From assembly GCA_951406725.2 (NCBI GenBank), contig OX597825.1:38192001-38256000 (forward strand): a DNA stretch of 64,000 bases. The letters run 5' to 3'. The position numbers and the translations under genes were made by a program. The notes beneath the pieces are model-generated. The model ran no database searches. It was not told the DNA's origin and saw only the letters and a list, made by a program, of their open reading frames with translations. This DNA comes from Octopus vulgaris. Lineage: Eukaryota. This document shows positions 9,815-64,000 of this stretch, piece after piece (positions within the stretch are counted from its first letter, which is position 1; each line of letters starts with the position of its first letter).

Positions 9815-9955
9815 AAAAATACCTGAAGAATGAGAACCCAGGTTCGAAATTTCCCCAAGACTCCTGATGAAGGCTGGAGGGTATATCAAACGAAACGTTG
9901 TGTTAACAAACACGATGAGGACACATATCCGTCAAATGCAAATAATGTAAATGAT
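9815..9955 (+). mobile_element. Short hammerhead-bearing PLE-derived element, family A
   Basis: ~140 bp homologous to 37430-37570 (minus); preceded by (AAT)n. Confidence 0.75.
9859..9904 (+). ncRNA. Minimal type I hammerhead, family A (stems I and II mutated)
   Basis: GACTC-CTGATGA-A-GGCTGGAGGGTATATCAAAC-GAAACGTT-GTGTT; homologous to 37477-37522. Confidence 0.72.
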
Positions 9956-28897: not shown

Positions 28898-28999
<102 letters not shown>

Positions 29000-29023
29000 A
29001 TCAACACGGATATCCAGAGGTAA

Positions 29024-29110
29024 TGCAGTACGATCGTTTCATGCGACTCCATTTAATTGAACAATGAAAATATTACATCAATTTAAAATGTAGAGCATTC
29101 TTCAGCTGCA
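29024..29110 (-). ncRNA. Type I hammerhead, family C (long stem II, intact core)
   Basis: Minus strand UGCAG-CUGAAGA-AUGC...~50 nt...GCAU-GAAA-CGAUCG-UA-CUGCA; stem I UGCAG/CUGCA, palindromic ACGAUCGU stem III, GUA cleavage triplet. Confidence 0.85.
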
Positions 29111-29541
29111 TAAAAATATAGAATTTAGTTAAATTCGAAGGATTCATTTGTATAGTTTTGTTATTATCCAAAATCACAAAGAGGATAAGTAGATGTATAC
29201 TCTTACTGAACCAAATGGTTTTACTTGAAAGAAATCTTGATTTATGACCCTGCCACTTAAACTGTCTTTTTACCCAATCCATAACGGATAGATTCTAGTT
29301 TCTATTAGACTTGATAAACTAGTCTATAAGTTAAAACTCACCCCACCCCCACCACTAGTAAATCTGAATAACAAATATAATCAATGCTAAGCAGTGTCTT
29401 CCTTTGAAAAAATCCCAGTTACCACTGTGTTGTTGTTGTTAAATATGTTCTTTGTCTGTATACTCATCCTCTTTGTGATTTTGGATAATAAGAAAACTAT
29501 ACAAATGAATCCTTCTAATTTAACTAAATTCTAAATTTTTA

Positions 29542-29628
29542 TGTAGCTGAAGATTGCTCTACATTTTAAATTGATATAATATTTGCATTGTTCAATTAAA
29601 TGGAGCCGCATGAAACGATCGTACTGCA
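29542..29628 (+). ncRNA. Type I hammerhead, family C
   Basis: TGTAG-CTGAAGA-TTGC...GCAT-GAAACGATCGTA-CTGCA. Confidence 0.8.
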
Positions 29629-29769
29629 TTACCTGGATATACTTGTTGCTTATTTTTATTATGACCACCCCCAATTTGAATTATATCGATAATACCATAC
29701 TAAATTCTGGTGCCTTTAACTTAAGTACCATATTCATCAGAATCACTCTCTCTCTCTCTCTCTCTCTCT

Positions 29770-29836
<67 letters not shown>

Positions 29837-37429: not shown

Positions 37430-37570
37430 TTTACATTAACATTTGACAGACAGTTGCCCTCACCTTGATTGTTGTTAACACAACGTTTCGGCTGATATAC
37501 CCTCCAGCCTTCATCAGGTGTCTTGCGGAAATTTTGAACCTGGATTCTCATTTCTAAGGTATTTTTCGAT
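37430..37570 (-). mobile_element. Short hammerhead-bearing PLE-derived element, family A
   Basis: Homologous to 9815-9955; preceded in its own orientation by (AAT)n(AAG)n. Confidence 0.75.
37477..37522 (-). ncRNA. Minimal type I hammerhead ribozyme, family A (intact core)
   Basis: Minus strand GACAC-CUGAUGA-A-GGCUG-gagggUAUAU-CAGCC-GAAA-C-GUU-GUGUU: stem I GACAC/GUGUU, stem II GGCUG/CAGCC, palindromic AACGUU stem III. Confidence 0.85.
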
Positions 37571-53921: not shown

Positions 53922-54140
53922 TATAGTTAATACAAAAAAAAAAACACAAAGAGAAAACACAACAACGCGAGGACGTAGAACAAGTATAGTGTTATTGGAC
54001 GCTCAGGAAAGGAAAGAAAGAAGAAAGAGGATTTAACGTTTCGAGCGGAGCTCCTCGTCAGAAACATAGGAAAAGGAAAAATCAAAGGAGGGAAACACGG
54101 AGGAAAAAATATCGCCAACGATACACACGCGGTCACATTA
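53922..54140 (-). mobile_element. Short hammerhead-bearing PLE-derived element, family B
   Basis: Homologous to 38170-38350; ends ATTAACTATAT in TA-rich repeat. Confidence 0.75.
54031..54065 (-). ncRNA. Minimal type I hammerhead, family B (intact core)
   Basis: Minus strand GUUU-CUGACGA-G-GAGC-UCC-GCUC-GAAA-C-GUU-AAAU. Confidence 0.82.

Positions 54141-61928: not shown

Positions 61929-62014
<86 letters not shown>
61929..62014. repeat. Self-complementary (CT)n(AT)n(AG)n compound microsatellite
   Basis: Direct reading. Confidence 0.93.
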
Positions 62015-62020
<6 letters not shown>

Positions 62021-62350
62021 GAATATGGTAAGTTGAGGCACCAGAATTAAGTACGGTATTATCCATACAATTTCAAAATATAGTGATTAAAATCAAAATA
62101 AGGAACAAGAAAATCAAGAGGTACTGCAGTACGATCGTTTCATGCGACTCTATTTAATTGAACAATGCAATCATTTCATTACAGCAATTTAAAATGTTGA
62201 GCTATCTTCAGCTGCACAAAGACATAGAATTTAATTAAATTAGGACACATTAGTATAATTATACCTAAAATTTCCAAGAGGATAAGGAGATAGACAAAGA
62301 ACATGTTTTACCAACAACATCATAGTTGTAACATAGTTGATTACTGGGAC
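62015..62350 (-). mobile_element. Family C hammerhead-bearing element
   Basis: Homologous to ~29410-29745 (GATAATACC.TACT.AATTCTGGTGCCT...CCATATTCATC); ends in (CT)n(AT)n. Confidence 0.78.
62125..62216 (-). ncRNA. Type I hammerhead, family C
   Basis: Minus strand TGCAG-CTGAAGA-TAGCTC...GAGTCGCAT-GAAACGATCGTA-CTGCA. Confidence 0.8.
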
Positions 62351-63610
62351 GCACTTTGACCACAGTCTATGTGTCGTTTTCATGTGTTCTGGTAGTGGTG
62401 GGATCCAGCACATCGAGATTGTAGGGCGTAACATGTTCAATACTCTGGGTGTTCAAAGGCCCATACACCGTCAGTATATGGAGTACATGAGGCGTTTCAC
62501 AAAGCCCATTGGCACCTGTGCCCACACCCTGAGGAATGTTGCATCCAGTTCCACAGGTGTGGGAGGGAGCATAGTACTGCTGGAAACACGTGGCTGTGGT
62601 GACTCGAGAGGAAAGGCACGATGTGAGGTCTTAGGATCTGGTCAGCGCAGCGCTGCGCTGTGATGTCATTCCCTCTGCCTCTACCATCATTTTGGAACAC
62701 ATGGGGATCAATTCTCTGATTCAGGCCTATAGCACGCCAAACTATGATAGTTTGGTCACCCCACGCGTCTCCCTCCATCAGACAGGCGTCTTTGTAGCGA
62801 TTACTACTCCTACACCACTCTCTCACTCTGCCATCCGAGGTGGAAACGCAGTACCGGCTCTCGTCAGAGAAGACTATCAACCTCCATTATTGATGCCGCT
62901 AACGTCGGTGCTGTGTATCCCACTGTAGTCGTGCCTGTGGGTGAGGACAGGCCCTCGAGCAGGAGGTCGGCAACGCAGGTTGTCGGCGGCCAGTCTACGT
63001 CGTACCGTGTCAATGATGATATGTAGCTGTCCAGTGCTAATGGTCTCCCGAGCTGTCACTATGGCCGGTCTGAAGCGATCACGGTGTTCTTGCAGGTGAA
63101 TGAAGCGCCCCTGTCTGGGCGTAGTCACCCAGGGGTTTCCTCTGGAGGCACAATCTGCAGTACTGCTGGTGTTGCATCGCTGTTGCAGACGATAGAAGGT
63201 GCTGTCACGGATATTTTAAGCTTCCACAACAATCAGGGCACGCTGCCCTGCTTGCAATCAGCCGATATCTGGATTTCTCTGCGCTGCTGAAAATCTGTTC
63301 ATACCTAATGCGTCCAAATTACGAATACCAGGAATGCAGTTCAAGTAGAATTATATACCCATAACCTCCACGAGATGCACGTGCATTTCGGTTTTCAAGA
63401 CAGCTGTTTGCGACTGCAACCCATGGTATTCAACGCAGCTGCAATTTGGCGGCTCGTTTCAAGGAAAATTGAAAATGTTACCTGCAATTTAGGTTTCAGC
63501 CATAAACCGGCATGTTTTGGAATATTTACACTTACAAACCCGAAACAAATTTTCACAATTTACCATATAAAAATGATATTTGAAAAAAACGCATTTCTTT
63601 CGAGTTTCAC
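62350..63610 (-). mobile_element. Tc1-family DNA transposon relic
   Basis: STFYRL...TADCASRGNPWVTTPRQGRFI...DTVRRRL...LRCRPPARGPVLT (Tc1/Tc3 HTH), IVFSDESRY...DGRVREW...IIVWRAI, ILRPHIVPF, WAF..NTQSIEHV; multiple frameshifts; left end abuts a hammerhead-bearing element; right end approximate. Confidence 0.88.
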
Positions 63611-63687: not shown

Positions 63688-64000
63688 ACCGATGCCTGAC
63701 CCGTTAAATTCTTCAGCCACCGGTTCTCAACATACACTGATAAACAGTTTCGCCATGGGCTCTTAGGAGCATAGTTCGATTTGTTTTGGCTCCGCCTCTG
63801 TTCTGTTTTTGTTTTTCCAACGGATTTCCTATTTTCTTCCTGAAGAGAAAGACACAATATGGTCCCATTATTCAATCGGATTTTGGTAATTTGTGCCTTT
63901 CGAAACACGTGTAGAATGAAATAAAACGATTTCTGTTCAATCTGCGTTCAGCTCCATTTCTTCAATTCACCAATAATGTTATATATTATATATATATATA

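Follow-up and report, generated by a model that had tools for sequence, protein, structure and literature searches.

Long-stem hammerhead motifs of Octopus vulgaris as the probable 3′ pseudo-LTR of a Hydra-type Penelope-like element

A 64,000-nt stretch of Octopus vulgaris contig OX597825.1 (hereafter the window) contains three hammerhead-like motifs (family C) with a palindromic stem III and a very long stem II, two of which form a head-to-head pair. What kind of element do they belong to, and what may their fold do for it? All the parts listed in the first-pass annotation of the window (i.e., CUGAAGA, GAAA, GUA, stem I and the self-complementary ACGAUCGU) were found at the places that it gave. 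Copy 1 (29023..29111, minus strand) has a 6-bp stem I, a stem II of 58 nt with A-U at its base, the palindrome ACGAUCGU and a predicted cut at 29029|29028. Copy 2 (29541..29629, plus strand) comprises CUGAAGA (29547-29553), a stem II of 58 nt with U.U at its base (29554-29611), GAAA (29612-29615), the palindrome (29615-29622), a predicted cut at 29623|29624 and a 6-bp stem I, while copy 3 (62125..62216, minus strand) has a 5-bp stem I, a stem II of 63 nt and a predicted cut at 62130|62129. The order is stem I, CUGAAGA, stem II (58, 58 and 63 nt, and not the ~50 nt first estimated), GAAA, CGAUC, GUA and stem I in all three, and the core of a type I hammerhead (CUGANGA, GAAA, UH, three-way junction and open stem I) is present; with ACGAUCGU in each copy, the reading as a type I hammerhead with palindromic stem III holds. 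Identity is 93% between copies 1 and 2 (~198 nt) and 78-83% between copy 3 and the main subtype (~335 nt).

The genome searched comprised 2.8 Gb in 227 contigs. The exact family-C pattern GCAGCTGANGAN{52,68}GAAACGATCGTACTGC matched 964 times and its reversed-pattern control 0 times; thus, the motif is not due to chance. A looser pattern with the same palindrome yielded 4,410 matches with a stem II of 40-70 nt versus 1,176 with 8-38 nt (control, 1 each), both of which include several unrelated families. With a covariance model of the sister subfamilies, whose training alignment contained copy 2, only the three copies scored strongly in the window (101, 96, and 74 bits), the next match having 21 bits. 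A fourth long-stem hammerhead, of another family, lies at 63833-63920 (plus strand) and has a 55-nt stem II closed by G-C, the palindrome ACACGUGU, a short, bulged stem I and 21 bits with the same model. Minimal hammerheads without loop 3 (GAAAC GUU) are found in other repeat families at 37477-37522 (minus), ~9858-9904 (plus) and 54031-54065 (minus). None of the 134 matches of an Rfam scan of the window at E<=1 was to a hammerhead family; they were to miRNA, snoRNA and one viral-UTR model, and the ten alignments inspected were all on microsatellites.

The annotation had predicted that core and stems would be conserved or covary in excess across genomic copies; excess conservation was observed for the core, and covariation for the stems. 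In copies retrieved by way of the upstream UTR, a search that does not depend on the ribozyme (13 arms in 28 loci, those not spanning the motif having been dropped), the core differed from the majority at 0 of 156 positions, compared to 142 of 2886 (4.9%) elsewhere; for the 36 arms of the first search the counts were 5/432 and 406/9714 (4.2%), all of them from related copies and hence non-independent. Within family C, stem I, stem II and the palindrome vary as much as the flanks, and stem II, which had been described as variable, departs from the majority by ~4%, no more than the flanks do. Stems I and II and the palindrome covary across the sister subfamilies: among 16 representatives, which are related, hand-picked and partly palindrome-filtered, and with a structure that leaned on RNAalifold of the same alignment, 92.6% of the cells were paired (slid controls, 27-53%), double changes occurred in 9 of 22 pairs (44 such cells; 17 of 500 shuffles reached 9 pairs), and the covariation score was 0.380 versus 0.223, with 0 of 500 shuffles reaching 0.380. 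Four helices persist between subfamilies, namely stem I, a basal stem of 3 bp (UGC/GCA), a CAU/AUG stem and an apical hairpin of 7 bp; the base pair adjoining the core is unpaired in 9 of the 16. The AAUUGA/UCAAUU pairing proposed earlier does appear in single-copy folds, but the stems kept in the sister subfamilies are others. Judged by these alignments, stem II is kept as a folded structure across the sister subfamilies.

Stem III is short and self-complementary, i.e., ACGAUCGU in the window and CGAUUG or CAAUUG in sisters. Its third pair is G-C in 9, G.U in 2 and A-U in 5 of the 16 representatives; when the palindrome filter is lifted, all 12 motifs of the family type still pair with themselves (CGAUCG, CGAUUG or CAAUUG), and one further, unrelated match does not. 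Since a monomer would have to form this third pair around a loop of only 2 nt, its covariation favours a duplex between two molecules. The palindrome duplex was calculated at -10.0 kcal/mol versus +2.4 kcal/mol for the monomer hairpin, and the dimer-active fold of the window copies lies ~11.5 kcal/mol below two monomer-active folds; it equals the minimum for copy 1 and lies 11 kcal/mol above it for copy 3. The stability of stem II is weak in window copies 1-3 (z = -1.3, -1.7, and +0.8), is within -1.1 to -1.7 in family C apart from copy 3, and is strong in three sisters (-3.1 to -5.5). The G10.1-C11.1 closing pair is absent from family C, with U.U in its place in 40 of 43 sequences of the two main clusters, while two sister subfamilies have G-C at the stem II base. 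In hammerheads this pair is conserved, not universal, and its loss should lower the cleavage rate.

The best 30 genomic matches had a common 3′ end point and scattered 5′ starts, and the long copies had in common 1.9-2 kb of AT-rich, ORF-free sequence. An antisense ORF in this UTR was considered and rejected, as no noteworthy frame exceeded ~85 residues. A search with the far end of the upstream UTR gave 30 loci, in 11 of which a GIY-YIG-type endonuclease with a CxCx5C linker and CxxC is found upstream on the same strand; endonuclease, UTR and ribozyme are collinear within 3.5 kb in 6 of the 30, and also in L070. The Pfam match of the endonuclease is weak (GIY-YIG, E 0.011), and a Pfam search of the reverse transcriptase (RT) region gave no match. 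RT sequence is linked to family C by ~90% DNA identity in L186 and L037, and YRDD is found in L189, a close relative. Nearly the whole element, though broken, is preserved in L362/L374, which comprises an inverted arm, a ribozyme (92% identity to window copy 3), the tail, an ATG at +187 from the predicted cut, RT residues 7-623 and, beyond an insertion, the endonuclease. The broken copies L362/L374, L186, L189, and L070 agree with one ORF for RT and GIY-YIG endonuclease upstream of the ribozyme, and the copy-3 subtype reaches the endonuclease in 2 of 30 loci, none of which has two same-strand ribozymes. These results substantiate the suspected link to Penelope-like elements (PLEs) and supply the linked PLE ORF that was looked for. 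Because the upstream walk reaches UTR, endonuclease and RT, the copies are best read as truncated ends of a protein-coding PLE and not as a retrozyme.

From 5′ to 3′, the element consists of a 5′ pseudo-LTR with ribozyme, a start codon ~185-210 nt past the predicted cut, RT, an Asn-rich linker, GIY-YIG endonuclease, a 3′ UTR of about 1.5-2.1 kb between endonuclease and ribozyme, ribozyme and tail. Among the family-C copies examined, no intact ORF was found, and the window copies are probably dead relics. In the young sister L106 there is an open frame of 947 residues, including a long Asn-rich linker, and its copies are 96-99% identical. Two young sister subfamilies have near-identical copies (L106:4051-6891, minus strand, with L202-L217; and L118, L131, L145, L195, and L196). 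L189:2940-4160 is an internally deleted copy whose RT region is fused to the middle of stem II.

By its motifs, family C appears to belong to the Hydra clade of PLEs, which is characterized by RWK, DKT, a CxCx5C linker, CxxC, CxH, the lack of CCHH and (TA)n targets (Craig et al., 2021; PMC8557442). L106 has RWK, DKT, YRDD, CxCx5C, CxxC, and CxH; DKT is also present in L362, whose RWK is decayed, the linker and CxxC in L063, and CxH in L041. By eye, CCHH was not seen in the endonucleases of L063 and L106, and the Hydra proteins printed in that paper have the same N-terminal and RT motifs as L106 (PMC8557442). Insertion into (TA)n, another feature of the clade, is seen for family C. The Neptune clade was rejected, as it needs DKG and an unmodified Cx2-5CxxC linker, where DKT and CxCx5C were found. 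In a tree of 31 translated rows of at least 120 residues, all being unnamed homologues and none a named Hydra, Neptune or Nematis reference, the 11 long-stem rows of the lineage stand apart from the rest (bootstrap 100) and the three family-C rows are grouped (bootstrap 99), the branch of L074 being artefactually long.

Family C resembles the Hydra clade in its C-terminal GIY-YIG endonuclease, its RWK, DKT, CxCx5C, CxxC, and CxH motifs and its (TA)n targets, in a hammerhead on the sense strand, close to the 3′ end, whose stem III is self-complementary, and in U.U followed by UGC/GCA at the stem II base, which are found in 14 and 8, respectively, of 26 rows of File S2 (PMC8557442). Hydra hammerheads of the type CUGANGA-U-UGCC-loop-GGCA-U-GAAA are described in many families (PMC8557442). 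The U.U base, which had been a candidate novelty, is therefore already in print in 14 of 26 Hydra rows (PMC8557442). Unlike family C, the published clade has units that are generally <3 kb, compared to ~4.6 kb here (long Asn-rich linker and 1.5-2.1-kb UTR), and tails of 30-40 nt, compared to 70-115 nt here (PMC8557442). Three core strings of the family-C lineage were absent from the accessible part of the supplement of Craig et al. (2021; PMC8557442).

The head-to-head pair is a single insertion. Its long arm (29201..29745, plus strand) is the 5′-truncated 3′ end of a Hydra-type PLE, i.e., the end of the 3′ UTR, the ribozyme and the tail, and is followed by (CT)n and then (AT)30 (29746..29832). 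The tail past the cut (29624..29745, plus) contains the conserved CUUGUUGCUU (29642-29651), the short-arm end point (near 29660-29665), a GGUGC...GUACC hairpin between the two 3′ end points (29709-29729, plus) and the long-arm end point. The short inverted arm (28995..29194, minus) spans roughly 165 nt before and 35 nt after the predicted cut and continues into (TA)n, where (TA)28 (28939..28994) is the likely insertion target. The two ribozymes do lie on opposite strands and point apart, as first described, but they represent one 5′-truncated insertion with an inverted arm and not dimer partners. Since copies 1 and 2 are on opposite strands, a cis dimer between them is impossible; this candidate was rejected, as a read-through RNA would form a sense-antisense duplex of -278.6 kcal/mol over 648 nt. 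The third, separate copy (62011..62332, minus) is 5′-truncated, belongs to a subtype with a 63-nt stem II and ends at a (GA)n/(TA)n microsatellite. Its 5′ end is adjoined by a broken Tc1/mariner-like transposase (62335-63350, minus; Pfam HTH_Tnp_Tc3_2, weak, E 0.0017), whose catalytic domain, without a Pfam match, presumably also resembles that of Tc1/mariner.

The same footprint recurs in the genome. An adjacent inverted arm with ribozyme is found in 11 of the 30 loci, in agreement with the inverted partial pseudo-LTRs that had been expected, and ends +35 to +44 past the cut in 10 of the 11; the long arms end at about +108 to +125, in most cases passing into (TA)n, and the young sister likewise has two end points, at +41 and +157. 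Pseudo-LTRs in tandem, 5′ truncation, an inverted 5′ arm and an optional tail are thus all present. Inverted arms and tails are standard for PLEs (PMC8557442), and opposite-strand hammerhead pairs had been noted in 2014 (PMC4209133). A GCUC...GAGCA hairpin occurs 42-57 nt past the cut in 9 of 16 homologous metagenome elements, the contigs of two being too short (L234, L237, L248, L265, L275, L289, L292, L296, and L301). This hairpin and the GGUGC...GUACC hairpin are candidates for a binding or priming signal of the element protein.

We therefore consider it very likely that the motifs are the 3′ pseudo-LTR of a Hydra-type PLE, truncated at TA microsatellites, and that they are type I hammerheads whose cleavage after GUA likely requires a dimer. 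The full-length RNA would bear a ribozyme at both ends, ~4.6 kb apart in the young sister, and the active fold could form between the 5′ and 3′ copies of one such RNA or between two RNAs. Once two copies had paired via the 8-nt palindrome, cleavage after GUA would be slow and probably protein-assisted. The long stem II may be an ordinary Hydra stem of U.U and UGC-GCA whose 4-nt loop has grown into a hairpin that is tolerated but under selection. The element protein would nick (TA)n DNA, and reverse transcription would start at two internal sites of the RNA, which would account for an insertion with a long arm and a short, inverted one.

Priming at two sites is proposed by analogy with PAc, a Poseidon element of Anolis, for which two internal priming sites bounding the tail were demonstrated in vitro (Frangieh et al., 2024; PMC11167929). 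PAc resembles family C in its two fixed 3′ end points bounding the tail, its AT-rich targets and a hammerhead near the start of the ORF (PMC11167929). In PAc, however, the ORF begins inside the ribozyme and priming occurs inside the ORF (PMC11167929), whereas in family C the ORF begins 185-210 nt past the cut, beyond both end points. Catalytic mutants of PAc left insertion in vitro unaffected, cleavage needed protein, and RNA-seq ends did not map to the cut (PMC11167929). The 5′ ends of insertions were rejected as a footprint of cleavage, as 0 of 14 same-strand pseudo-LTR starts were at the cut, the nearest being 22 nt downstream; in the young sister, 5′ pseudo-LTRs range in length from ~50 to >1,300 nt, with scattered starts. 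Because the insertions extend 108-157 nt past the cut and none start there, the template would have been uncut, rejoined or circular, or would have been jumped, and re-use of the template by jumping was proposed in 2014 (PMC4209133). Contigs from sequencing runs that we took to be RNA cover family C, and some bridge the cut; they contain no notable joints and no clear ends.

Cleavage could also be secondary, if the fold were a protein-binding or RNA-pairing signal and the palindrome joined two templates in the manner of a retroviral dimer signal, each priming one nicked strand and so producing an insertion with two arms. We regard this as unlikely, though it accounts for several observations: both arms overlap one region of the RNA; the arms of L008, L016, and L027 differ like unrelated loci (9/24, 7/15, and 5/13 shared polymorphic columns), the difference in L008 including a linked indel; and PAc extends both strands and is a predicted dimer (PMC11167929). 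In 11 of 15 arm pairs, however, the difference does not exceed the 14th percentile of those seen between loci, as a single source would predict, and the discordant arms could result from later gene conversion or recurrent mutation. Moreover, Naiad elements form such inverted structures without canonical hammerheads (PMC8557442). Conservation is also higher in the catalytic core than in the palindrome, a sign of selection on the chemistry.

An AUUAAA hexamer inside stem II of copy 2 (29595..29600, plus), 23 nt before the predicted cut, is a possible poly(A) signal. The extension of stem II could accordingly be a poly(A)-signal hairpin, containing AAUAAA or AUUAAA 23-26 nt before the cut and followed by a GU-rich element, with cleavage competing with 3′-end processing at one site and the fold masking the signal in the 5′ copy, which we consider improbable. 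Of 100 distinct sequences of the clade, as defined by a regular expression that set aside 49 other sequences, many of them also clade members, 93 have AAUAAA or AUUAAA 20-28 nt ahead of the cut, whereas ~3-7% would be expected by chance in such a window against the UTR background. The hexamer alternates between the two canonical forms across subfamilies, and the GU-rich CUUGUUGCUU is at +18 to +23 in nearly all clade sequences. These hexamers could nevertheless go back to one ancestral event, and the run of A also pairs in the middle stem. Furthermore, the hexamer is missing at that place in 12 of 12 other loci of the same genome and, within 30 nt upstream, from all 16 metagenome homologues; no loose poly(A) end lies near the cut among the contig ends listed from the presumed RNA runs; and the insertions continue well past the hexamer. 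Our literature search returned no paper linking a PLE hammerhead with an embedded poly(A) signal. In run X6, also guessed to be RNA, four contig ends have a run of A just past the 3′ end of the element (equivalent to ~29745-29760; agreement 0.65), a weak hint of polyadenylation at the end of the tail.

Dimer-dependent cleavage, as in the reading that we prefer, has to be weighed against a ribozyme that is active as a monomer, with the long stem II or the bound element protein stabilizing a 2-bp stem III with a GAUC loop. Selection on stem II as a structure, its high stability in some sisters (z = -5.5 and -3.2) and the protein-assisted cleavage of PAc (PMC11167929) would agree with this proposal, which we hold to be quite unlikely: a monomer hairpin leaves the covariation at the third palindrome position unexplained, in 8 of 8 sequences the minimum lies 1-8 kcal/mol below the monomer-active fold, and hammerheads with a short helix III were inactive as monomers in a published test (PMC4209133). 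Very doubtful, in our judgment, is a multi-purpose switch, in which the palindrome would join two templates for priming of the two arms while stem II carries the poly(A) signal, which would bring self-cleavage and 3′-end processing by the host together at one spot; a protein dimer would then prime both nicked strands, with arms from two molecules and sometimes from different source elements (cf. L008). A non-autonomous, retrozyme-like family, i.e., a short non-coding unit mobilized in trans by a PLE, was the first-pass interpretation and fits the short, ORF-free state of the majority of copies, but it is most improbable, as the variable 5′ ends are continuous with a 1.7-2.1-kb UTR, endonuclease and RT, the copy-3 subtype is likewise continuous with the endonuclease (2/30 loci; L362), no short head-to-tail array is seen in the window or the loci examined, and the sole tandem seen is a 2.8-kb duplication that includes the flanks (L033).

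As a PLE hammerhead, family C is set apart mainly by its stem II, for which the early impression of unusual length is confirmed by 57-63 nt, compared to 12-26 nt (hand count) in the 26 Hydra rows (PMC8557442). A pattern scan of 78 metagenome loci with homologous proteins detected hammerheads in 21 of them, 26 in total and every one on the coding strand; the opposite strand and the reversed control gave none. In 25 of the 26, stem II is 10-25 nt; a 64-nt candidate in L251 was not recovered by the covariance model, which gave 43 matches in these loci, 41 on the coding strand and each 43-60 nt long, compared to 91 nt here. The published animal hammerheads that were compared have a short helix II (PMC4209133; PMC8557442), and a 2026 paper on viral hammerheads refers to 6-8 bp as a "long helix II" (PMC13725137). 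A long stem II is not without precedent, as two rows of the Selaginella PLE-X1 have ~54 and 48 nt; unlike family C, these PLEs are from a plant, endonuclease-free, rDNA-targeted, marked as deviating and without an 8-nt palindrome (PMC8557442). Many other hammerhead families in the O. vulgaris genome have long stems too. One separate lineage (L120, L126, L141-L144, L148, L153, L155, L156, and L165) forms a graded series with stem II of ~19, 21, 30, 36-38, 44, and 68-70 nt, seemingly lengthened by insertion at the tip and independently of family C.

The hammerheads of metazoan PLEs resemble those of family C in being type I, in the palindromic helix III, the place in the pseudo-LTR, the dimer model and opposite-strand pairs 100-700 bp apart, and differ in a bulged base followed by G10.1-C11.1, a helix II of at most 7-8 bp and a short loop (Cervera and de la Pena, 2014; PMC4209133). 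Family C has instead a symmetric U.U (G-C, G.U, or A-U in sisters) and a three-segment hairpin. Animal non-LTR retrozymes have in common with family C a type I hammerhead and Penelope ancestry (bioRxiv 10.64898/2026.07.22.740005; PMC7229834), but they are ORF-free tandem repeats, whereas family C is unarrayed and continuous with an RT-endonuclease ORF (bioRxiv 10.64898/2026.07.22.740005). The architecture, the dimer model and the U.U variant are therefore already known for the clade or class. What is new, as measured on sequence against the rows of PMC8557442 and the metagenome homologues, is a structurally conserved stem II of 57-63 nt, two to five times the listed Hydra length.

The role of hammerheads in PLEs is described as open by Craig et al. 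(2021; PMC8557442) and Frangieh et al. (2024; PMC11167929). The subfamilies of the family-C lineage, one of them young, with an open frame and copies that are 97-99% identical, amount to a set of natural mutants: their core, palindrome and long stem II have changed together, and the path of the palindrome from G-C to G.U to A-U favours the dimer fold. The young sister subfamilies, which have near-identical copies and in one case an open frame, are the best material for bench work. Because Rfam is blind to the window motifs while pattern matching finds 4,410 long-stem and 1,176 short ones genome-wide, the numbers of ribozymes reported for genomes of this kind are probably too low. If true, arms of mixed source or an embedded poly(A) signal would bear on how PLEs insert and how their transcripts end.
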